Below are positions 28,395 through 64,000 of a stretch of 64,000 bases of DNA, piece by piece. The first letter of the stretch is position 1; every line of letters begins with the position of its first letter. The notes under the pieces were generated by a model. It was given only the letters and a program-made list of their open reading frames with translations. It searched no databases and was not told where the DNA came from. Made by a program: the position numbers and the translations under genes. The stretch is from Okamejei kenojei (Eukaryota): assembly GCA_035221665.1 (NCBI GenBank), contig CM069156.1:27466001-27530000 (forward strand), written 5' to 3'.

Positions 28395-28722
28395 TTAGAC
28401 AGAGGTTCACTTGCATGATTGCATCTCTTCGAACCCCATCAACTGCATTTAGTGCTCCCAATGTGGTCTCCTCTACGTTGGCAGAATGAAGTGTAGATTT
28501 TGCGACCGCTTTGCTGAACATCTGCACTCCATCTGGCAAGGCCTGCTGGATCACTCGGTTGCAAACCTTTTCAACTCCCCTGCCCATTTTCATACCGACC
28601 TTACTGATCTTGGCCTACGCCATTGCCAGAGAGAGGCTACACTGGAAACTGGGAGAACAGCACCTCATATTCCTCTTCGGTAGTTTACAACCCGACCTAT
28701 GAACATTGAATTCTCCAATTTC
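28395..28722 (+). mobile_element. Decayed Penelope-like GIY-YIG fragment
   Basis: RFCDRFAEHLHSI..VANLFNSPAH and EQHLIFLFGSLQP, homologous to 30860-31171. Confidence 0.85.
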
Positions 28723-29084
28723 CTTTCCCTTTCCCTTCACCGGCCCTCGCACATACATTTCTCCCACCATCTCCCACTACTCTAGTTACCCTGGTCCTTT
28801 CCTCTCTTCCGCACACTCATTTCCCACTCGTTCCATCCCTGGGTCCCCTATTGCACTTAAACCCTCCTCTTCTATTCCTCTCTGAACCTTTTCACCCATA
28901 TCCAACACACTGATTTTACATTTCAGTCCTCCTCTCCTTTCCTTCTGTCTCCTTTTCACTTCTAGCCTTTGTCACTCATTCCATCCATCTGCCAGTCATA
29001 CTGTCTCTAGTATCCAGCTATCACTTGCTAGGCTTTGCCCCAGCCCCTCCTTTTTTTACGCAACTTTCTTTCCTACTCCATTAA

Positions 29085-30579: not shown

Positions 30580-31370
30580 CTGCCCCTTGTCCTCACCTTC
30601 CACCCTACCAGCCATCACATACAACAAATAATCCTCCAAAGTTTTCACCACCTCCAACGGGATCCCACCACTGGTCACATCTTCCCATCTCCTCCCCTTT
30701 CGGCTTTCCGCAGAGACCGCTCCCTCCGTAACTCCCTGCTCAATTCGTCCTTTCCCACCCAAACCTCCTGGCGCTTTCCCTTGCAACCGCAGGAAATGCC
30801 GCACTTGTCGTTTTACCTCCCTCCTTGACTCCATCCAAGGACCCAAGCAGACTTTCCAGGTGCGGCAGAGTTTCACCTGCACCTCCTCCAACCTCATCTA
30901 TTGCATCCACTGCTCTAGGTGTCAGTTGCTCAACATCGGTGAGACCAAGCGCAGGCTTGGCGATCGCTTCGCCCAACACCTCCGCTCGGTTCGCAATAAC
31001 CAACCTGATCTCCCGGTGGCTCAGCACTTCAACTCCCCCTCCCATTCCGAATCCGACCTTTCTGTTCTGGGCCAGAGTGAGGCCCACCATGAATTGGAGG
31101 AGCAGCACCTCCTATTTCGCTTGCGTAGTTTACACCCCAGCGGTACGAACGACTTCTCCAATTTCAGGTAGTCCCTGCCTTCTCCTTCTTTCTCCTCCCC
31201 TTCCCAGCTCTCCCACAGCCCACTGTCTTCGCCTCTTCCTTTGTTCTTTCCACCCCCCCAGCCCCACATCAGTCTGAAGAAGGGTTTCAACCCGAAACGT
31301 CGTCTATTTCCTTCGATCCATAGATGCTGCATCCCCCGCTGAGTTTCTCCAGCATTTTTGTTTACCTTGT
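30580..31370 (+). mobile_element. Penelope-like element 3' fragment (GIY-YIG endonuclease + terminal repeat with hammerhead motif)
   Basis: ORF 30860-31171 FTCTSSNLIYCIHCSRCQLLNIGETKRRLGDRFAQH..PVAQHFNSPSH, upstream PLVLTFHP motif, terminal ctgaaga..gaaacgtc. Confidence 0.9.
31271..31305 (+). ncRNA. Minimal type I hammerhead ribozyme motif (Penelope-associated)
   Basis: CTGAAGA (31274-80), an extra A, stem II GGGTT-TC-AACCC, GAAA, palindromic ACGT mini-stem III, GTC cleavage triplet. Stem I pairing is weak and activity is untested. Confidence 0.6.
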
Positions 31371-32499
31371 ATGGTTGTAATGTGTTTTAGATCATCCTGA
31401 TATCATTAAGGGAGCTGCATAAATGAAAGTCTTCCTTTTGGATTCATTTCTGAGATAATCCAGGTATATGTCAAATTCCACTGAATTTTTAATGGAATTT
31501 TGAAGGATTTAAGTTGGTGTTTGACACCTCTCCGTAACTTAAAGCAGTAGCCTTATTCCTGGTCAGTCAGATGGAGGTACTTTAAATTTAAATCAGTGCT
31601 TCAATTGTACATCATGGACCCAGTACTCCTGTGAATGCTGATTAAAGTTTTCATAAACAGTCAAAATATAGCCAGAAGTTCCGTTCAAGTCAGATTTGCG
31701 TCCAAATTCTCAGTGGTGATATAAACTCGAGGCACTCTTACAGAACTCAATACAAAGCCGCTGTTATAGAAATAGGTTAGTTACTGAAAGTTCTGAGACA
31801 GTAACAGGACACACTGCCAATCCTGGGAGGAAAAGTACACTTTTAATGGTGGATGTTAAAGAAATAAGGCTTGCATTTACATCTGACCCTCCCTACCCTC
31901 CCTGTGCTTCCAGCAAGGGATTGCCAGGTGGCAACAAAAAAGGGCAAAGAAGCCCATTTTATTTATTTTCCATAATGAAGGAGAACTGAGCCATTTGTAG
32001 CAATGTTCCGAACAAAACCTATGTCAGATTGAGAGCGAGTAATACTGTAGGTTGATACATCTCATCACTTAGTAGATGTTACAGGATGACATTGCAGGAT
32101 TCTGAAGAAGGATCCCAACCCAAATTTCATCTGTCCATTCCCTCCACAGATGCTGCCTGACCCGTTGAGTTCCTCCAGCACTTTGTATTTTGTTCAGGTT
32201 TCTTACCATTGTTTTAACAAAGCAGTGGCGCCAGCAGTTTGGAGGACTGCAAGCATTATACCTTCTTTTCAAAACGAGATGAACAGATAAACCAAGTAAA
32301 CAGATTAATTAGTTTAACTTTGGCAATGCTAAAAGTGTTGGAATCAATGTTGAGGCATGGTATAAACCTGCAGAAAGGTACGGGTGACATTTCGGGTCGA
32401 GACCTTTCTTTTTATCCAGAGATGCTGCCTGTCCCACTAAATTACTCCAGCATTTTGTGCCTGGTATCGGTGTAAACCAGCATCTGCAGTTTCTTCCTA

Positions 32500-33060
32500 C
32501 ACGGTTTAAAAAGGTACAGTCAGCATGGATTTGTCAAGGAATTGTTGACATTTTGAGGAATGATCAAGGCAGGGTCTGTGTTTGATTTAACCTTTAGAAA
32601 GGTTTCTGACAAAGTCCTATATGGTAGGTTGGTCAACAAAATAAAAGCCCAAGTGAACCAAGAGAGAGTCACCAATTATGCTTAGGGAATGGGTCACAGT
32701 CACCAAGGTGCTCTTGCAACTGGAAGATAAGTGTCCACAGGGCTCAATACCTGGCTCTTTGCTTTTATGGGAAATCTTAACGATTCAAACTTAAACGTAG
32801 GAGGCAAATGAAAGATGTGTGTAGATGATGCAAAGAAAAAATCGTATGGTTGAGGAACACTCCCTACAGCAAGGATATGAATGCTCCATTCAATTAGCAA
32901 GGAAAATAGCAAATGGAATTTAATCCATGGAAGAGTAAGAAAAAAGCAAATGGAATGGAGATACCAGATGTTAAGCAAATGTATACTGAATGAAATGGCA
33001 TGGAGGATCAAAGGGACCCTGGATCTATGTCCACAAATCCTGATAAAGGTAACAGAACAG
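32500..33060 (+). mobile_element. Older decayed CR1 RT fragment
   Basis: cagtcagcatggatttgtcaagg (QHGFVK), gacaaagtcctatatggtagg (DKVPxGRL) and gatgatgcaaag remnants. Confidence 0.65.
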
Positions 33061-41844: not shown

Positions 41845-42040
41845 TTGAAGATGGACACAAAATGCAGGAGGAACTCAGCGGGACCGGCAGCATCTCTGGA
41901 GAGAAGGAATGGGTGATGTTTCGGGTCGAGACTTTTTCAGTCTGAAAAAAGGGTCTTGACCCGAAACGTCATCCATTGCTTCTCTCCAGAGATGCTGCCA
42001 ATCCCATTGAGTTACTCCTGCATTTTGATTCTATCTTCAA
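41845..42040. repeat. Fold-back palindrome of two head-to-head Penelope terminal repeats (~95-bp arms)
   Basis: ttgaagatggacacaaaatgcaggag...ttttcag t ctgaaaaa...ctcctgcattttgattctatcttcaa. Confidence 0.88.
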
Positions 42041-42388
42041 TTTTCTTGGCCCCGCTCTGGGAGTAGAAGTGGGGGGGGATCCGGACCGCAACGGCCGTGA
42101 GCACCAGGTCGAGCTCGGCGATCGTTTGCCTGCTTCTGCTGCTGTTGGAGGTGAGACATTGCGTTGAGCCAGGGTCTTGGGCCTGTCCCATTTTGGCCAT
42201 CAGTTACGCGACAGGCCGTTGGCGCGCAAAGATTTTGTTTGCTACAAAATTTCGGAGCGCCGTGCGATATTGCGCACAACTACATACCCCTCCGCACTAC
42301 TCAGTGGTACCGGCCCCGTGCGGCCACAGGATGCCCATGCACGTCAATGCGACGACGAGGTCGCGTAATTTGCGTGCCAAGGACACAT

Positions 42389-44698: not shown

Positions 44699-46819
44699 GT
44701 AAGAAAGCGTCATCTTTCCCTGTGACGCAGAATAACGTAGGCTTATTTGGAATTGACAACCCACCCTGTTCACCCCAGTAATGAATCTGCCTCGATGCTC
44801 TTCTCCTTCGTGGATGCCGTGGACATTACACATCAAGATTAGTTCATCACCATATGCACAAGTACAGAGGTACGGGAATAATGAAAAGTTTGCTTGCAGC
44901 AGCAGCATCGCAGACACACAGATTCAGACACACCAAAATATAAATAATATATAAATGACTTATAAAATCCTGCAAAACAGCATAAAGACAAAGAAAGGAC
45001 TGCAATGAAATTAGTGCAAAACTCAATCAGTAGAAAAGCAAGCTCATGGTTGTGCAAGTGGTGGTCAATAGTGTTAGGGTGTCAAGGTAAGGTCAGGGTT
45101 GTGCAGGTAGATTCAAGAACCTAATAGTTTTAGGAAAGTAGCTCTTCCTGAATCTGGTGGTATGGGACAATGCATTGGCGTACTTCGATCTGAGCTTCAA
45201 ATCTTCATTCTATCAGTCACCAAAACCACCCCTTTCATCTGTGGAACTCACTTGCTTATTATCATCTGTTGTGAGAATCTCTTGCTTTTGTAACCTGCAC
45301 CCCTGACGTAGCTCAAGATGCCAGTATCTGCAGCTTCATGTCAACAAAAGGAGAATGCTGGAAATGCCCAAAACATCAGGCGGTGCGTGTGGAAAGAGGA
45401 AAACTGAGTTAATATCACTAATAGATTGCCTTGCAGCCAAATTAACCCTTTGTTTTGCTCTACATAAAGTCCCTCATTAATCGATGAACCAAACTGCTCG
45501 GCAAACAATGAGATCACTTCAGCAATCTGAGCTTCACTCTGTCACAGACTAGGGATACAAAGGGTGCAGAAGAAAACAGAATTCTGTCAATGCTTTAGAA
45601 CTGGAGGAAGTCAAGAGGAGCAAGTCCATGGAAGGATACATTTAGCATCAAATTTGAGGACTTTAAATTTAAAGCATTCTCAGACCCAATGATTAAGCAA
45701 CTAAAACAAAATGAATGCTGGAGACTCCACTTCTGATGGAGAGTTTCGGACCCGAAACATTATTTTTTTTTTTCCACAGCTGCTGTCTGACCAGGTGAGT
45801 GTTTCCATCATTTTGTGCTTTACTCCCCTATACAAAATTCTCCATTTCCAAAAAGCAACTTCACCACTTTTCGGTGCCTCTTCTGCATCTGTCTTTCACA
45901 CAGAGGATGGTGGTATATGGAACGAGCTGCCCGAGAAGGTACTTAAGGCAAAATTTAAAATACATTTGGGCAGATACATAGATAGGAAAGGTTATGAGGA
46001 ATATGGGCCAAATCTGGGCTGGTGGGACTAACATAGAAATCTATTGTCCTTACCCAGTATTGTTCGGCACGGTCAAATTGGGCCAAATCACCTGCTTCCA
46101 TGCTGTAGCACTCAATGACTCTAATGTAGCCTCTAACTTTGGCGGGTGGACTGTGAGTCATCTCATCTCCACACATCTATTCTCCTCTAAACTATTCAAT
46201 GTTATTTAATTCTTCACCATCATATTAACCATCCTTAATATCAACTTCTTTAGCAGTCGCCTCCCTTAATTCCCCACCTATATTTGTTTGGGTCCAGCCT
46301 TAAACTGGCAAGCAGCTTGAGGTATCTGGCAACGCATGTTGCAACTGTGAGACTGTACGAGATGTTCTTTCAGGTTCAACATTACTGGTTTCTTCCATAA
46401 ACATATTTTATGATCAGGATAAAGGAGGCCAGTACACACCTCCAGGAGACATGCTCATGGTTTCACAATATTAATTTTGAATTTTGTAACAAGAAAGCAA
46501 TTTATGTTAAGGTAAGGCTTGGGAGAATTTTTAGAAAAATAAAGTTGATTTAGGATATGGTTATTTTATTTTTTACTAAGGTGTTGAAGATCTCGATGAT
46601 GATAAACCAAATGCTGTTTTAGAGGTTTAGTTCAAGGTCCGGTCACAGGGGTATCACTGATGACCAACAGAAACATTTATTGCTTAAGGACTACATCACC
46701 ATGGCCCTTGCCAACCCCAATTTATAGGGAGGGGAAATATGCAGGTATTTATTTTATGAATTTAACATTCAGTTAACTTTGCTGAAATAGAACTTGAATC
46801 AATAACCCAATACGACACA

Positions 46820-47045
46820 AGAAACAGCAGATGCTGGAAACTTGAGCTAAACACAAAGTGCTGTAGTAACTCAGCGGGTTTGGCAGCACATGTGGAGGGA
46901 AAGAACAGACGACATTTCAGGTCTGGATCCTTCTTCAGACTGATTGTAATCCCATCCCCTTGCCTAGGATATAATCAGTCTGAAGAAGGGTCCCGACCCA
47001 AAACGTTTTTTTTCCATTCCCTCCACAGATGCTGCCTGACCTCCT
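46820..47045. repeat. Fold-back pair of Penelope terminal repeats with a short spacer
   Basis: ccttcttcagactgatt...aatcagtctgaagaagg, with flanking gcagcacatgtggagggaa / ttccctccacagatgctgc. Confidence 0.8.
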
Positions 47046-48097
47046 GCACCTCGTATTTTGGCTTTGTTAAAATATTAGGAAACCATGGGGTAATATTTCA
47101 AATACATGGTAAAACCTATTAAAATACTCTTGGCACTGGGCAGACTGGAAATTTCTAACCTGTGAGAAGCTTTAAAAACCTGGTCCCTTTGGACTTTGCT
47201 CATTATAACATAAAATAATTCAATTAAAAAAAGGATTTGTAGGAATTACTCTAGGTGGCTAACTATGAAATGACATTACTTTGTTGGTGACATTCTCCTA
47301 CTTTATGTATCAGTTCTGCACAATGATATATTTGAAATGTTTTCATCTGATGTTAAAATGATGCACTTATTCAGTCCCTTGCATACTCACCACATTACCT
47401 CTATCCACCACGTTAATGGCTACTTGTTGTGAATGTGATTTAAAGTCCCTACAGTGTGCTTGAGAAAGGTCTCAACTTATTTTTCCAGCCACCAAGGAGA
47501 GCTGAGTTTACACATTGGTCCTGGAGGTGAAAGGTCAGCCTGTCAACAGCTTCGCGCCAAATCACATCGCAGAAATACAAAATATATTTAAAATCAAGGT
47601 TGATACCAATGGTCTAGTGATTGAACAAATATAATCACCACAAGAAAAGACACTATCTGAACTGTTGAGATACTCCAGCACTTTGTGCCATTTTTTGTAA
47701 ACCAGCATCTGCAGTTCCTTGTTTCTCCATTTCACTACTCATCACAAGTACATGCTTCACAATCGCACTGGAAATGTGTCCAGAGTTTGAGACAAAAATC
47801 TATTTTTATATGGATAATATTGCATCAGTCAGATTTTTCAACAGGGTTCATGTTAATGAGTAATAAATTATGTATTTTATGTTCTGACTTCTGAGTGATG
47901 CATTATGTGAAACTTGTTTGATTTCTCTGGTAGTTTTAGTCCCTGACCATACATATACACTCCTCTGACCTGCCTCATTTACATTTCCTACTATTGTTAC
48001 ATATGAAGAATGGAAAAAAGATGGACATTGAGCGCCTAAACCCCACTTCCACCATCGAATTAGATCACGGATGAGCTGTACCTTAATTCCCCTTTTT

Positions 48098-53046: not shown

Positions 53047-54284
53047 TGGAAGCTTTGAGCTCCACCGGCATTTATAAACAACTTGAATTTTACTCTGTAA
53101 CTTTTCAAAAAACTCACCACTATAACTGGAGTCATAGGCAGGCCAGACATTACTGAAAATATTATGGAGATATTAATATTTTGTGTCAGTTGCTGTTATT
53201 AGGTTAATATTGAAATGTGAACATGATTTTGATGCAATCAACCTGCCAGCTTAACACAAACCAAATGTACACTCTCATTTTCTTTACTCACACTCAATTT
53301 TGCTCACTATTTATGATCCATGCAGTGAAAAGGTAAAGAATAGCTATTAATATTTCATCGTTCTTCCTTTCACAATTGAACCAGATTACCCTGCAGTTGA
53401 TTGTTATTCCACATCTATTGTAAATGGGGTTATGCAAAGCAGCACCATGGAAATGCACCTTTATAGTAACGCATACAGAGAGACAACATGGAAACAGGCC
53501 CTTCAGCCCATCATTTCCGGACAGTCCTATAACTAATCCCACACTCAATCCCACTTTATTCTTCTCAATTCCCATGAACTCCCCCACATGCTATCATTCA
53601 TTCAAACAGCAGAGCAATTTACAGCTGTCAATAAACCTACCAACCTGCATGTATCAACAGTTAGTTATACTGCAAACTTAAAGCCTGCACAAAAAGTTTG
53701 ATTTAAACAAGTTGTTTCATACTCTGTACATTGTTTATGTCACTCAGCCAAGTATTATTGTGGATCATAGATAAATAGGCATGAATATATTTTTACAGAA
53801 GGATGCATTTTGGATGATTGTTGGGGGGGGGGGGGCGACGACGATGACAATGACCCTTATCTCACCTAAATCAAGGTCAGTTTGTTTTCCAATGACACTC
53901 ACATGAGGAACTTTGAGATGTTCAACCATACATATATAATAAAATGAGAATTTCCGCAAACGCTGTAAGCTAAAAGCTACAGAACAATTCACAGTATCGG
54001 AAGAGAGAGAGAGAGCACCTGTATATCACAGTACAGGATGAGCACAGATGGATCTCTAAAATGTGAATATTCAGGAGTCACTGCTTACCTGCTTGCATGA
54101 CTCACCCACACTTGGTACACGTGACAATAATGAACTAATGCCAATACCTATATATAATGTGAAGTGTCTGAAGTACACTCGACCTGCGACGTCACCTATC
54201 CATCTTCTCAAGAGATGCTGCCTGACCCACTGAGTTAGTCCAGCACTTTGTGTCTTCTCTTAAACAAAGCAAGAAGCTGGAAAT

Positions 54285-54412
54285 GAAGGGTCTCGACCCG
54301 AAGGGCCTGGAAGGGTCTGGAAGAAGGGTCTCGACCCGAAACGTCGCCTATCTCCTTCGCTCCTTAGATGCTGCTGCACCCACTGAGTTTCTCCAGCTTT
54401 TTGTGTACCCCC
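54285..54412 (+). mobile_element. Stand-alone 128-bp hammerhead-bearing Penelope-terminus insertion with 10-bp TSD
   Basis: agctggaaat at 54275-54284 and 54413-54422. Partial tandem stem II copy at the 5' end; ends ttgtgtaccccc. Confidence 0.85.
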
Positions 54413-55664
54413 AGCTGGAAATTATTAATTTGCTACGTTAAAAAAGCACTACTTTTCTTTTGGACAATTTCAGCCTTCACCCAATCCTCTTCACAAATCT
54501 ATTTCCTGTTTCCTGGATTGCATGAAGCAGTCCTGTCAAGCAACTTTTTGATTATTTTATGACATCTCTCCAATAAGTCAGTTTTGCAGAAATATCAGTG
54601 ATACATGGACAGATCCCATTCCATTCCACAATAATACCTGGTTGAATTACAAGGTACAGAGTATGAAAAATGTAAGTGCAAAAAGCTTGCTGAATTAATT
54701 AGATTTGTTTACCTCAGTGGAAAATCCATCCTGAAAGCACAGAAAGCACATTTGCCTTTCAAGTTATCACGTGACCATTAAAAACCATGAAATAGATAAC
54801 TTAGAAAGTCTCAGAGTGTTCATCATGAAGAGGAATCAGCACTACATTTTCAATGATACATAAGACAAATAAACACAGCTCACCGATAACAGCAGACATG
54901 TCTGCCCCTTCACAGTTTGTTAATAAGATTTACTGTTCACTGTTAAAATGTCCAGGAGATGAATGAGGATCAGGGCAAACCTTCAGAAGGATAAAAGGCG
55001 GGTTAGATGAACAAACAGAAAGAAAGTTGAGAAAATTAGATTGTTCCCTCATAAGTTAACAAAACAGCAGAAGGACCAGACGTGTGTGTAAAAATTCAAC
55101 GGGATTAATAATGTTAGCATTGTGGACTGAAGAGCAAGCAATCACCATTATAAGATTGTGATAGAAATGATACAACCTTTGTTGCACAGTGGTTGCTTCA
55201 TTAGAATTGAGATCACAATCTTCAAAAGCCAAAGGCCAGATTAAATTCTGACACAGTGACAGCTTTTTTTGTTTTTGTTTCATTGCCAAAGCTAATTCTG
55301 TTGGATTCTACGTGCAGTGGTCCAGACAGCATACACCATCATATGCTATCCTAAACCAGCACAGCTACACCGGACCTCTTGAGCCCATTTTACCATGGAT
55401 CTAAATACAAAGCCTGGAGGAATTTAGGGGTCGGGCAGCAAGTGTGGAGGGAATGGGCGGATTACTTTTCATGTCTGGACACTTCTTCGGGCTGATTACT
55501 CCATAGATATTGCCTGACCCACTGAGTTCCCCCCGCACTTTGTGTGTTGCTCATGTTCCAGCAATTGTAGTTCCATGTGTCTGCCATTAATTCAGATCAG
55601 GTTGCCTGTACCTTGCCTTCATTCTCATGGAGTAAATTCCAATCCAGACCGAACAAAAGTAATT

Positions 55665-55805
55665 CACAAAAGCTGGAGTAACTCAGCAGGTCAGACAGCA
55701 TCTCTGGAGAAAAGGAATAGGTGACGTTTCGGGTCGAGCCCCTTCTTCAGGCTGAGAGTCAGGGAAAAGTTTGAAGAAAAGTCACCTATTCCTTTTCTCC
55801 AGAGA
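55665..55805 (-). repeat. Penelope-terminus repeat with a near-intact antisense hammerhead motif (55721-55750) and partial inverted copy
   Basis: Reverse complement reads ctgaagaaggggctcgacccgaaacgtcacct; tctctggagaaaaggaataggtgac pairs with gtcacctattccttttctccagaga. Confidence 0.78.
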
Positions 55806-55949
55806 AAGTGTTTTGATTAGAGAGATTAGATTTGCATAACACTTTTGAATGGAGAAATTCTTCCCACATCCCGCTCCCAGAAGGCTGGGGTCAACTTTAT
55901 TTCTCCTTGTTCTTGTTCTGTTCCTCACTGGAGGAAATTGCTTCGAAAT

Positions 55950-56228
55950 TTAGTTTAGAGATACAGCATGGAAACAGGCCCTCCAGCCTACAGGGTCCAC
56001 TCTAACCATCAATCACCCATTCACATTAGTTTCATGTTATCCCACTTTCACAGCCACTCCCTACACATTAGAGGCATTAAAAAAACAAAAAACGAGGATA
56101 ATTAACCTACAAACCCACATCTTTGGGATGTGGAAGGAAACCAGAGCACTGGAGGAAACCAGCTAAGTTACAGAGGCCAATGAACCTATAAATCCGGACA
56201 TCTTCGAGATGCTCCACCGCGCCGCCCC
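55950..56228 (-). mobile_element. V-SINE (HE1-like), rearranged
   Basis: tttagtttagagatacagcatggaaacaggcc tail and V domain. Confidence 0.75.
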
Positions 56229-57064
56229 CAGCCTATGTTGGGTAAGTGCTAGCAATTCACTAGGAGTGAAATTGCACCAAGCATGAAGCAATGCTACAAA
56301 ATGCACCATGAACTCACAAGGCTAGATCACTAACACATCAATGTTCTCAATATCTTGTGGGATCAGCCAACACTGTCACAGGGAGGCAGTGCACTTCTCC
56401 CACCGTTCTCACTGGGTTCTGTGTGTTCTTGATGAATGGACTCAAGATGCTCGTTCTCGTCCCAGGCTTCTTCCCTTGAGTGGTCATATAACCATATAAA
56501 CCATATAACAATTACAGCACGGAAACAGGCCCTCTCGGCCCTTCCAGTCCGTGCCGACCATTTGTTTCCCCTAGTCCCATCTACCTGCACTCAGACCATA
56601 CCCCTGCATTCCCTTCACGTCCATATACCTATCCACTTTACTTTTAAATGTTAAAATCGATTCTGCCTCCACCACTTCTGCTGGAAGCTCATTCCACACA
56701 GCCACCACTCTCTGAGTAAAGAAGTTCTCCCTCATGTTACCCCTAAACTTCTGTCCCTTAATTCTCATGTCATGCCTTCTTGTTTGAATCTTCCCTACCC
56801 TCAATGGGAAAAGCTTATCCACGTCAACTCTGTCTATCCCTTTCATCATGTCATGTGTCAGGGATTACCAGGAGTTAGTGGAAATGTCGCATTCTTTTCA
56901 AGAAGGCGTTCAGAACATCTATGAATCTTTTCCTCCATGTTCCTGGCAATTATTTGACAGTGTGCTTCTCGGAGTAATGCCTGATTCAGGGGTCTGGAAC
57001 CGGGCCATGCGATGATATGGCCTGCCCGATGGAGCTGACATGTGTTACTGAAACTTTGGTGTTG

Positions 57065-57485
57065 GAGATTTTGATTGAAAGATGCAACATGGAAACAGGC
57101 GTTTCGTCCCACCGAGTTCATGCCAATCATCGATCACCCATTCACACTAGCACCGGAGTCTGAAGAAGGGTCTCGACCCGAAGCGTCGCCTATCTCCTTC
57201 GCTCCTTAGATGCTGCTGCACCTGCTGAATTTCTCCAGCCTTTTGTGTACCCCCACACTAGTACCATATCATCCCACTTTCTCATCCACACCCTACACAC
57301 TTTACAGAGGCCAATTAACCTATAAATCTATAAATCTTTGGGAGGTGGGAGGAAACTGGAGAATTTGGAGGAAACCCACAGTCACAGAGAGAACGTGAAA
57401 ATTCCACACTGTCAGCACCTGAGGTCAGTAACAAACCTGGGTCCCTAGCATGTCCGGCAGCAGCTCTACCAGCTCCTCCACTGAG
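57065..57485 (-). mobile_element. V-SINE (HE1-like) interrupted by the hammerhead-bearing insertion
   Basis: Tail, V domain and head on the minus strand, split at cacactag. Confidence 0.8.
57151..57253 (+). mobile_element. Stand-alone 103-bp hammerhead-bearing Penelope-terminus insertion with 8-bp TSD, nested in a V-SINE
   Basis: cacactag at 57143-57150 and 57254-57261 flanks gtctgaagaagggtctcgacccgaagcgtc...ttttgtgtacccc. Confidence 0.85.
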
Positions 57486-61299: not shown

Positions 61300-62065
61300 A
61301 ACACAGAGACTTGATAATTACCCAGGTGACTGCAGCCTGTCACCTTAACCTCGGATTGAATCATTCAGTGATTTAATTATCTGAGAAGGGAGGAGTTTAC
61401 AGCAAACTGGAGCATTGAATCACTTGCACAAAACACAAAGTGCTGGAGGAATTCCGTGCGTTGGGCAGCATCTATGAGAGAAATGGACAGGCGACAAAAG
61501 TTTCTGACCCGAAACATGCCTGTCAATTCCCTTCACAAATGCTGCCTGACCCACAGAGTTCTTCCAGTACTTTGTGTTTTGCTCAAGATTCCAGCATCTT
61601 TTCTTCTTTCAGTCTGCATCAAATCACTTGTTCGTCCTTCAGTGAAACAGATGGGAAAATTTCAGCTCCTTCGAACTAGGATATGACTTTACAGTTGCTT
61701 CACAAATTGGTGGGGGAGAGCAAGCAATGTAACAAATAATTGGCAATGGAGTTTACTCTTGTTTACATCAAAAACTTGAACAAGTTCAGTGATGCTGTAG
61801 AAAAAGGAATTGTGCAGTAACAAGCTTAATAATTGAACAGAACCTCTTCCCTGCTACAGCTTTTGATGAGAGGTCCAGGACCCAGCGAGCCCTCTTTCAA
61901 AACATTAGATACTGAAAATCTGTGGAGTTAATAAGCAAAGATTAGATAATTCATCTGTAGTAGGTCTTCAACAAATCATTAAAGTCTTTTCCCATACATT
62001 AATTGACCTGGCTGCCTGTAAATTGTTAATATTTTCGGAAGATTTTTGGTCCATAAACATTTGGA
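61300..62065. promoter_or_regulatory. Candidate intronic enhancer block in tbx4
   Basis: Mostly non-repetitive and motif-dense: TGTTTAC 61760, AGATAA 61944, TAAT clusters, CCATAAACA 62051. Conservation not tested. Confidence 0.35.
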
Positions 62066-62129
62066 GCTGACCGGTCAACATTTTTATATTTGGAATGGAA
62101 TTAAATACAAGTCAAGACTGTCACACATA

Positions 62130-62715
62130 TCGTTTCGCCGAACACCTCCACTCGGTCCGCAATAACCAACCCGACCTCCCGGTGGCTCAGGACTTCAACA
62201 CCCCCTCCCATTCCGTATCCGACCTCTCGGTCCTGGGCCTCCTCCACGGCCAGAGTGAGCAACACCGCAAGTTGGAGGAACAGCACCTCATATTGCGCTT
62301 GGGGAATCTGCATCCTCTGGGCTTGAACATTGAATTTTCTCAATTCTGTTAACCCTTGCTGTCTCCTCCCCTTCCCACCTCTCCCTCAGCTCTTGGGCCC
62401 TGGCATTCCCTCTCTCTCTATCTCTCTCCCCCACCCTAGTCGCACTAGCTTCTCATTTTCACACCACAAACAGTTTACAATGGCTTGTTCCCTTTATCAT
62501 CGATACTTTTTTGCATATCTTTCATTCATTGTTCTTTATCTCTCCACATCATCGTCTATATCTCTCGTTTCCCTGATCCCTGACCAGTCTGAAGAATGGT
62601 CTCGACCCGAAATGTCGCCTATCTCCTTCGCTCCTTAGATGCTGCTGCACCCGCTGAGTTTCTCCAGCCTTTTGTGTACCCTCGATTCTCCAGCATCTGC
62701 AGTTCCTTCTTTAAC
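62130..62715 (+). mobile_element. Penelope-like element 3' fragment with degenerate hammerhead motif at 62589
   Basis: RFAEHLHSVRNNQPDLPVAQDFNTPSHSVSDLSVLGLLH..RKLEEQHLILRLGNLHPLGLNIEFS, followed by a pyrimidine-rich UTR and ctgaagaatggtctcgacccgaaatgtc. Confidence 0.88.
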
Positions 62716-64000
62716 ACTGTCACACATAAGGTTGGTTCGGAGTGTTGAGCAGAACTTAAGCTGAGGCTGGAATGACACATGGGTCCGGTGCGGATTTATT
62801 TTGAAGTTAACTCTATTAAACATCAGTTCACAGGATAGAGCGAGTATGTTTTACCCCTGGATAGGTGCTTTCAGAATTAATTACCCTGATCGGGAGTAGG
62901 GAGGGGATTAGGAATGTCTGAAATTCTGTTTTCTGTCCCTTGAGGAAGGCTGGGGAAGAGCTGGATTCATTTTCCTGATACAGATCCATGCTTTGTGGTG
63001 ACTTTACTGCACGGACATTCACCAGGAATAGTTGCGTCTGGTAATGGAGTCGGAGACAAGGTTTCCCAGGAAGCTGTGTATTCAGAGCCTGCCTGTGTGA
63101 TTAGCAGCTTGGGATCAGCCAGGTAGGAAACGAACTGAGGCTGGATAGGGCTGGGGGAGTGGTACATCGTTAATGCGCCGAGTGCCGACCCAGATGAAAG
63201 CAAGACACCTAACATATGGGCAATAAAAATACTTTTGTTACCAACGAGAAACAAAAAATATAATGTGGAATAATGCTTAACTCTGATTACCATTAACCTG
63301 CTGACATGTTTTGTGAGTCGTAAAAATACCTAAAGATTTCTCAAGAGGAGTTACAGAGAGATGCCTGAGTTGGAGCTGAGACTAAATTGTCCCCCGACCA
63401 TTCAGCCCAACTAGACCACAACAAAGCTATATTCCACACCAACCTCCTACCGTGCTTCACTTCATTCCACATGTATTCACGACCAGCGCAAAGACAGTCT
63501 GCACATGGGATTCCCGTCGGCATCTCTCGGTTGTCCAACTGGACATTGATGGGTTCAACCTGGCAAACGTTTCTCTCAATCGTGTGGGCGAAGAGAGAAG
63601 TAAGGAACTGCAGACACTGGTTTTACAACAGAATGGGTGCACAAATAGTACAACAGTGGGAGAAATGGGTGCACACCCAGATGGGCACAAGAAAGAGAGG
63701 GGAAAAAGGGTGGGGGATGTTGCGGTAAATTGGGTATGAGAAGAGAGAAATGGTAAGTGGAGGTATCAAGTCCCTGTGAGATTAGACCATGACACCCAGG
63801 TCTCGCTGTCATTTAAATAATATGGTGTACATTTGCCCACTCACAGCCTATCCAAGTCACCTTGCAGTCTCCTAGCATCCTCCTCACAGAACACAGCTTA
63901 GTGGTGGGGCCTTCAATTCCCTCATCCAGATCATTAATATAATTGTAAATATCCCCAGCACAGGAATAGTTAATTGTGAAAAGGACCCGAATGTTTGGGA

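Follow-up and report, generated by a model that had tools for sequence, protein, structure and literature searches.

Short hammerhead-bearing insertions in the genome of Okamejei kenojei are copies of the front end of a Penelope-like element with a sharp 5' boundary

The genome of Okamejei kenojei contains short insertions with a hammerhead motif, and we found that each copies 100-130 bases from the front end of a Penelope-like element (PLE) and that they number in the tens of thousands. They have one sharp 5' boundary and two 3' ends, are flanked by TSDs, correspond to the start of the PLE 5' UTR and come from the same source as the long PLE copies. Their main 5' end is not made by ribozyme cleavage. 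The reading we favour, with moderate confidence, is that they are run-off products, for which the RT would prime at internal sites of the 5'-most unit and reach the RNA 5' end. The analysis started from a stretch of 64,000 nucleotides (contig CM069156.1, positions 27,466,001 to 27,530,000), here called the window. In it, an initial annotation had assigned two insertions, A and B, to a very small retrozyme-like family mobilised by the PLE, with extreme 5' truncation of ordinary PLE insertions as the main alternative.

Both insertions were found as described. Element A (54285-54412) lies between two copies of a 10-mer that occurs at only these two sites of the window. Element B (57151-57253) is flanked by 8-bp copies and splits a SINE-like repeat, of which a paralog at 55955-56110 has no insertion at that point. 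The split repeat is presumably a V-SINE and presumably lies on the minus strand. The additional 30 bp of A are a stuttered re-copying of its own first 25 nt and contain no new element sequence, and both elements stop at +96 to +98, the common endpoint noticed earlier. Judged by the established hammerhead core consensus, neither predicted ribozyme core is intact: the CUGA box of A contains one additional G, and in B GAAA is replaced by GAAG. As annotated, a 23-mer is common to A, B and the PLE copy at 62130-62715 (about 95% identity), and this copy continues beyond the endpoint of A and B, to +130. BLAST gave 28 hammerhead- or tail-related pieces across the window, counting A, B and the PLE copy, where two dozen or more had been estimated. 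The hammerhead core motif was matched 6 times in the window (0.00 expected from shuffling), and an Rfam scan of the window gave no match at the gathering thresholds.

Table 1. Features in the window; positions with a sign count from +1 of the PLE 5' unit
Feature	Position	Strand	Basis or remark
3' end of an older PLE with endonuclease, pLTR, hammerhead and short tail (only the part that aligns)	30963..31366	+	
Head-to-head inverted pair of older short copies	41855..42045	.	
Further head-to-head pairs, alike	46819-47046; 61433-61616		
Older-subfamily short copy directly upstream of A	54166..54253	+	
Left TSD of A (10 bp)	54275..54284	+	
Stuttered, partial repeats of the first ~25 nt of the element, 5' junction of A	54285..54314	+	sequence
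Body of A (PLE 5' unit from +2 to about +98), with short tail	54315..54412	+	
Hammerhead motif of A, with extra G in CUGA box	54317-54345	+	
Right TSD of A	54413..54422	+	
Older-subfamily copy with a few pLTR bases	55665..55765	-	
SINE-like repeat split by B (aligned part only)	57075..57330	-	paralog 55955-56110
Left TSD of B (8 bp)	57143..57150	+	
6 bases foreign to the element, 5' junction of B, the last a G	57151..57156	+	locus L001
Body of B, +1 to +97, short tail	57157..57253	+	
Hammerhead motif of B, GAAG in place of GAAA	57160-57187	+	
Right TSD of B	57254..57261	+	
Left TSD (13 bp) flanking the 5'-truncated PLE copy	62117..62129	+	right copy 62716-62728
C-terminal end of the PLE ORF (C-half of GIY-YIG endonuclease) to stop codon	62130..62352	+	
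Pyrimidine-rich 3' UTR / pLTR	62353..62585	+	
TATA-like motif in the pLTR, at -29	62557-62561	+	
Inr-like CCAGTCT, +1 = 62586, start boundary of most short copies; also fits a YAG splice acceptor	62584..62590	+	
Minimal hammerhead motif of type I, with the cut predicted after 62616 (+31)	62589..62616	+	sequence; PMC4209133
Stretch between the ribozyme and the first 3' end (+96)	62617..62681	+	
Optional tail of ~35 bp, reaching the second 3' end (+130/+131)	62682..62715	+	

The diagnostic 23-mer had 50,160 exact matches genome-wide, which bears out the abundance claimed for the copies, and about 35% of the sampled matches, corresponding to roughly 17,000 of the 50,160, were stand-alone short copies. 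The ends were mapped in an unbiased sample consisting of the first 100 matches of a 3'-anchored 23-mer, from the first 5 Mb of one contig. The first 30 loci were kept out of the end histogram because they had been picked by similarity to B. In this sample a 12-nt interval at the hammerhead's upstream edge (-4 to +8) held 57 of the 100 starts and the zone from -5 to -27 held none; 29 copies started at -28 or farther (4 of them reaching the reference end) and 14 at +10 to +35. The main peak of the short copies was at -1 to +2, about 30 nt upstream of the predicted cut (+31/+32), and the ending rate per base inside the peak was about 140 times the upstream and 21 times the downstream rate. Genome-wide, the exact counts dropped per base by 15-17% at +1, -1 and -2, by 6% at -3, by 3.3% to -5 and by 1.2% farther upstream. 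The same boundary was found in a second subfamily, where 59 of 90 copies are not long, and likewise in older subfamilies. A loose end at -1 was also listed for contigs (42, 37 and 21) in 3 of the 4 runs covered, from two organisms; all 24 runs available consisted of contigs, most of uncertain RNA status.

At the 3' side, the copies ended at two sites, +96-98 (short tail) and +129-134 (long tail), with an optional tail of about 35 bp between them. Long PLE copies end at the same two sites, which match the internal RT start sites of Poseidon of Anolis carolinensis (PAc); the common 3' end noticed earlier is therefore the ordinary PLE 3' end. TSDs of 7-25 bp were detected in 43 of 77 stand-alone copies, compared to 0.9 in shuffled pairings. 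The 77 were left from 119 short copies after exclusion of 35 that have an inverted partner and 10 carried by other repeats, 3 copies belonging to both groups. Of the features that the initial annotation had proposed to plot for all genomic copies, the copies sampled here show a sharp 5' peak, two 3' ends and TSDs of 7-25 bp. All 12 close inverted pairs combined one long and one short tail (p=4e-5). Direct tandems were seen twice among the 100 sampled matches, the others being monomers, inverted pairs or ends of long copies.

The parent element was then characterised. The 73-aa ORF piece of the PLE copy in the window (62130-62352) had no Pfam match, and a longer relative (L043) matched PF01541 at E=0.001, under the curated cut-off, which was the sole Pfam match and came from one of four proteins. 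Natural copies encode an RT core (YIDD) and GIY-YIG/CCHH motifs, as expected for a single-ORF PLE, and the PLE traits of a 30-40 bp optional tail and an inverted 5'-truncated partner are present. The PLE 5' UTR begins with the short unit, the ORF having its ATG at +166, and the element runs on past +131 into the ORF start (274 exact matches). In L235 and L217 the pLTR stands upstream of the ORF as a partial tandem, with pLTR, hammerhead, tail and ORF start unbroken. Among eight copies carrying 600 or more nt of the ORF, three started at -1, +8 and +19, three at +69, +88 and +93; the remaining two extend by read-through as far as -489 and -579. The hammerhead core and helix II were intact in 127 of 176 young copies, and helix I has only about 2 bp. 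A C-x4-C-x2-C motif precedes the endonuclease, and this Cys motif in the RT-EN linker suggests an EN+ PLE of the Neptune or Nematis clade as the parent, probably Neptune. Mobilisation by the RT/GIY-YIG protein of the PLE, as proposed in the initial annotation, is likely.

Short and long copies were then compared. Their divergence was 2.3% and 2.4%, respectively, and the long tail was present in 41 of 119 short and 19 of 57 long copies. No variant was significantly specific to the short copies among these 119 and 57, a comparison with the limited power of about 90 bp at 2% divergence; one tail variant leaned to the short copies (27/119 versus 6/57, p=0.06). The loci of the variant, TSD and G tests were pooled from searches favouring particular starts and therefore give no class frequencies. 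The short copies derive from the same source as the long ones. In 18 partial-tandem events, counted by hand, 7 had a short copy fused to ORF-start sequence, pointing to a master-derived template, and in 9 both segments started within 5 nt of each other. Four of these same-start tandems lie at the one-off positions +28, +46, -53 and -79/-81. Since both segments start alike at such positions, RNA ends appear to set the stop.

The boundary itself retains YCAGT in all subfamilies. A TATA-like motif was found at -29 in 57 of 63 long young copies and at -29 to -32 in two subfamilies, and most copies of the other subfamilies are without it. Of 55 short copies that could be tested for a G adjoining the 5' end, 25 had one, compared with 15.8 expected (p=0.006); among copies starting at +1 the figure was 12 of 17. 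Against an internal control of long copies (13/36), this excess gave a Fisher p=0.40, and p=0.037 for the +1 starts alone. A DPE-like match at +29 to +32 and a G at +24 were set aside, since the ribozyme core fixes these bases. TATA and Inr-like motifs are described in the pLTR of a rotifer PLE (PMC3846280). We infer that the boundary is an RNA end, and the Inr-like YCAGT, the TATA-like motif and the modest extra G make a transcription start likely, which would presumably be a capped Pol II start.

According to the run-off reading, the PLE RT would prime within the 5'-most unit of the element RNA, at one of two internal start sites, and then drop off the RNA 5' end, likely a transcription start just upstream of the hammerhead, to give insertions of about 96 or 131 bases with TSDs. 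Priming on the 3' copy of the unit would lead to ordinary long, variably truncated copies, and priming at both cut DNA ends to head-to-head pairs in which one tail is long and the other short. Cleavage by GIY-YIG and priming at the target would occur here as they do for the anole PLE in vitro. Three of the eight ORF-bearing copies (-1, +8 and +19) speak for this reading; the other five, which start away from the boundary, and the rarity of the TATA-like motif in other subfamilies speak against it. The short copies are likely dead-end by-products of the PLE and not an independent ribozyme-driven family, because they have neither the upstream pLTR nor the sequence past +131. A further step is possible, though we hold it only tentatively: the RT would mostly prime at the 5'-most unit and run off, filling the genome with short copies, and could then jump back to a downstream point to recopy the same RNA. 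Such a repeat-addition-like step could generate the partial tandems and pLTRs.

Both options of the initial annotation miss this fixed 5' end of the template as the best reading. Its description of discrete, TSD-flanked, abundant and probably PLE-mobilised copies stood, whereas the retrozyme-like family did not. In a retrozyme, unit-length or circular RNAs from hammerhead self-cleavage would be copied into the genome. The intact core and helix II of most young copies would allow this, 5 of 100 copies start at +33/+35 just beyond the predicted cut, and contigs of another organism join the tail back to -1 via short spacers. However, the main peak lies 30 nt upstream of the cut, self-cleavage would strip the ribozyme off and not delimit a unit, and four of the five +33/+35 starts are inverted partners. 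Dispersed monomers and inverted pairs, the rarity of direct tandems, the lack of variants of their own and the divergence and tail shares equal to those of long copies make a retrozyme very improbable. A smooth continuum of 5' truncation fits the long copies, whose truncation points scatter between -28 and positions beyond -1100, but is refuted for the bulk of the short copies by the roughly 140-fold ending rate within 12 nt and the empty zone at -5 to -27, and has practically no chance as a general explanation.

Other readings concern the nature of the boundary. If the RNA extends upstream, a telomerase-related RT might often let go after unwinding the hammerhead/tail domain, as telomerase stops at its template boundary element. 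The stuttered re-copying in A fits this, as do short and long halves inside one event. Two inverted events, L080 and L083, have one half that halts at the boundary and another that enters the pLTR, which counts against the run-off reading, as it needs two priming units or fits a stochastic stop. A single-sequence fold of L235 pairs +5 to +14 with the tail end and brings the unit ends together (z=-1.6, weak); across the single-copy folds z ranged between +0.45 and -1.6, and the hammerhead fold was not reproduced. But the tail helix conserved in a consensus fold of 15 copies (one on the wrong strand) is without covariation, a stem should presumably stall the RT at its 3' side and not beyond its 5' side, and the 5' peak is identical for short-tail and long-tail copies. 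The extra G is not predicted and the one-off same-start tandems favour RNA ends, and we consider such a boundary unlikely. More doubtful still is a self-propagating SINE-like family, in which long-tail short copies would be self-transcribed and re-mobilised in trans by the PLE protein. The very high copy number, the discrete ends with TSDs, the Inr-like motif and both priming sites retained in short copies and the leaning tail variant would suit it. Yet no variant is significantly enriched in short copies and ages and tail ratios are equal (at low power), the ORF-start fusions show a master-derived template, and the anole protein required RNA to ORF +172, past the priming sites at 111-118 (PMC11167929). 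Slightly less probable again is a splicing-related end, where the boundary would be a 3' splice site or lariat branch point at which the RT stops, or the RT copies spliced RNA. YCAGT is equally compatible with a splice acceptor; in several subfamilies the unit follows a pyrimidine tract, a branch-point-like motif and CAG, and an intron of Drosophila virilis Penelope ends at the equivalent position (PMC4209133). A CATT-for-CAGT subfamily, which would exclude an acceptor, was represented by only 4 scattered copies among 370. Against splicing, short copies have no upstream exon in common and share flanks only where another repeat carries the copy; spliced-exon and host-exon tests were negative. 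What lies between distant TSDs is mostly further PLE sequence, largely inverted partners, GT..AG is absent from the 15 of 35 contig joints listed, and in a subfamily with a branch-like A at -6 the short copies mostly still start at +1/+2 or downstream.

The element resembles the EN+ PLEs described in PMC8557442 and PMC3846280: an ORF with RT and C-terminal GIY-YIG, a minimal hammerhead ribozyme (min-HHR) in the pLTR, an optional tail of about 35 bp, a head-to-head inverted partner with the tail at one end, variable TSDs and microhomology joins. It differs in that more than half of the sampled copies begin within 12 nt at the upstream edge of the hammerhead. No description of such a pile-up was found in the PLE literature searched, which included few subscription papers. 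For PAc, PMC11167929 reports two internal RT start sites downstream of the hammerhead that define the tail, cutting and extension of both DNA strands, and insertion in vitro that needs no ribozyme cleavage. The PAc ORF begins inside the ribozyme, unlike the ORF at +166 here. The text of that paper does not discuss the 5' ends of genomic copies, which its Fig. S2 may show. Dispersed solo min-HHRs occur in metazoans by the thousands per genome and were read as probably truncated PLEs (PMC4209133), and solo pLTRs are reported in PMC3846280; the ends mapped here are fixed on both sides rather than random. Animal non-LTR retrozymes are likewise small, non-coding and derived from PLE termini with a type I hammerhead, but are tandem, with a ribozyme per unit, and cleaved to monomers and circles (PMC7229834; bioRxiv 10.64898/2026.07.22.740005). 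The copies here are dispersed, their starts lie 30 nt upstream of the cut, and long PLE copies come from the same source. In Penelope of D. virilis, a partial tandem also provides the pLTR promoter (PMC2377424). There, transcription starts 46 nt upstream of a 75-nt intron, the end of which maps to hammerhead helix I (PMC2377424, PMC4209133). The start lies about 120 nt upstream of the ribozyme with the intron between, whereas here neither an upstream 5'-end peak nor a spliced exon was seen.

The transposition cycle of PLEs is only partly understood, and the basis of tandem and pLTR formation has been named an open question (PMC2377424, Discussion). If the run-off reading is true, tens of thousands of insertions place the transcription start of a vertebrate PLE within a few bases, and the solo minimal hammerheads massed in animal genomes would be explained without ribozyme activity. 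For annotation, such repeats belong under copies of the PLE 5' unit and not under SINEs or retrozymes. The same-start tandems yield a prediction that is directly testable in the existing in vitro system. If the RT does prime mostly at the 5'-most unit and does jump back, the insertion record would reveal two undescribed steps of the Penelope cycle.

Both short insertions, A and B, and their target-site duplications (TSDs) were present in the window sequence exactly as the initial annotation had described them, and the SINE-like repeat interrupted by B has an uninterrupted paralog within the window. A and B each share about 95% identity with the 3' portion of the Penelope-like element (PLE) copy, and 28 related pieces were found inside the window. 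Positions are numbered from +1 (window position 62586), the A of CAGT directly before the CUGA box of the ribozyme. The hammerhead is predicted to cut after +31.

Features in the window (window positions) and loci with same-start partial tandems
Feature	Position or locus	Observation
Insertion A	54285-54412	Core not intact, extra G in CUGA
Insertion B	57151-57253	Core not intact, GAAG replaces GAAA
PLE copy	62130-62715	5'-truncated, flanked by its own 13-bp TSD
PLE endonuclease remnant	28507-28807	Old, broken; no recognisable hammerhead or tail match adjoining
Older-subfamily head-to-head fold-back pairs	41855-42045, 46819-47046, 61433-61616, 32383-32505	Arrangement as in the young subfamily
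8-bp body-tail helix	62638-62646 with 62690-62697	Kept across subfamilies, without covariation
Same-start partial tandems	L216, L218, L220, L226, L227, L228, L237, L238, L239	Upstream segment runs into the ORF start

The diagnostic 23-mer (+44 to +66) has 50,160 exact matches in the whole genome (2.76 Gb), whose repeats suggest a shark- or ray-like animal. The 5' ends were read from its first 100 matches, which lie within 5 Mb of the start of contig C1; this sample is unbiased for 5' ends because the 23-mer sits 3' of the ribozyme. Fifty-seven copies started at -4 to +8 and none at -5 to -27. A further 14 began at +10 to +35, and the remaining 29 reached -28 or further upstream. When the core was extended base by base, the genome-wide counts fell from 27,322 (+2) to 23,249 (+1), 19,669 (-1) and 16,266 (-2), and further out to 15,294 (-3), 14,303 (-5) and 12,661 (-15). 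The loss is 15-17% per base across the boundary versus 1.2% past it, and about 44% of the intact-core copies end at the boundary. A second, older subfamily showed the same pattern, with 31 long and 59 other copies (n=90); about 12 of the 59 are long copies that were missed or copies with a start slightly upstream. In further subfamilies conservation collapses at -1/-2, and a loose end at -1 was listed for contigs in 3 of the 4 runs compared. On these data, a smooth continuum of 5' truncation, which had been the main alternative, is refuted.

Five of the 100 copies (L048, L143, L168, L179 and L188), four of them inverted partners, start at +33/+35, just beyond the predicted ribozyme cut, possibly from a minority of ribozyme-cleaved templates. 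Among the long young copies, 4 of 49 5' ends cluster at -28 to -31, the place of a TATA-like motif, which may reflect microhomology with AT-rich targets.

Beyond +131, 274 exact matches run into the PLE ORF start (ATG at +166). This makes the short copies the leading part of the PLE 5' UTR, and every 3' end is closed by it as well. The short copies have no significant variants of their own compared with the long copies and are of equal age (divergence 2.3% versus 2.4%). The 3' ends lie at +96-98 or +129-134 in short and long copies alike, and long tails occur in 41/119 short versus 19/57 long copies. The common endpoint noted for the short copies is not special to them. These two 3' ends match what the available text of PMC11167929 reports for an anole element: two internal reverse transcriptase (RT) start sites and a tail of 30-40 bp.

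The 57 boundary-starting copies comprise 22 with an inverted partner and 35 that stand alone. In each of the 12 close inverted pairs a long-tail half meets a short-tail half, the 'tail at one end' arrangement known in PLEs from the accessible parts of PMC8557442 and PMC3846280. Of 77 stand-alone copies, 43 lie between TSDs of 7-25 bp (0.9 expected); 17 of their junctions show microhomology, 4 are blunt and 22 hold a short insert. A more distant TSD was found for 11 of the remaining 34 (1.1 expected), in most cases enclosing an inverted PLE partner. At L172 the TSD encloses, besides the short copy, 191 bases of non-PLE DNA on its upstream side, a possible capture of host sequence.

Some copies are carried inside other repeats. 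At L075, L077, L081, L089, L090, L167 and L197 one short copy with an inverted tail piece lies within another repeat and was amplified along with that repeat, and the flanks are 93-98% identical across more than 1 kb. At L049, L062, L065 and L067 an inverted pair lies inside a dispersed repeat of about 330-430 bp whose tandem units contain GC-box/TGACGTCA; this repeat may be a small non-autonomous DNA transposon.

A hand count gave 18 partial-tandem events in the 30 loci that carry ORF-start sequence; the downstream segment ends at a priming site, and the upstream segment stops between +170 and +350. The two segments start at most 5 nt apart in 9 of the 18 (hand count), four at one-off positions (+28/+28, +46/+46, -53/-53 and -79/-81) and five at +1 to +9. 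Such segments would arise if the RT runs off one RNA end twice, and they suggest re-copying of one RNA after run-off. This is the simplest account, in which case the 5' pile-up would mark a common RNA end. Seven of the 18 events link a short copy to ORF-start sequence, which suggests that a master, and not another short copy, was the likely source of its template.

The evidence that this putative RNA end is a transcription start is weaker. YCAGT is found at the boundary in all subfamilies, and a TATA-like motif lies at -29 in 57/63 of the long young copies; about half of a second group have it at -29 to -32. An extra G at the 5' junction, which would fit copying of a cap, was seen in 25/55 cases versus 15.8 expected; however, this excess is not significant against the long copies (13/36). 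In two sets of 100 listed letters, a hand count found G in 36 and in 44. The boundary sequence can be read as a splice acceptor too. In D. virilis the equivalent position is where an intron ends, and the start lies about 120 nt before it (PMC2377424 and PMC4209133, in the portions available). No upstream exon common to the short copies was found, there is no 5'-end peak further upstream except the four ends at -28 to -31, and the boundary does not shift with a branch-like motif. It is also possible that the RT is released after the structured domain, on an RNA that extends upstream.

The parent is an EN+ PLE, and its linker motif indicates that it is probably Neptune. The initial annotation had proposed a retrozyme-like family. 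In the accessible text of PMC7229834 and bioRxiv 10.64898/2026.07.22.740005, non-LTR retrozymes are defined by tandem units and by ends set by cleavage; the short copies here have neither, and the proposal falls. In two contig sets, X5 and X1, matching positions 1386-1526 of the tandem master copy L235, the tail end is joined back to -1 via short spacers. They may represent tandem units, retrozyme-like units or units with internal deletions from related organisms.

Solo minimal hammerheads, solo pLTRs, tails and inverted partners are already in print. In the papers searched, the available text of PMC8969392 included, we found no description of a fixed 5' boundary or of same-start tandems; Fig. 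S2 of PMC11167929 may be relevant here. The feature holds up and is sharper than the initial annotation knew, and the short copies are probably one class of product from a known element, not a new family.
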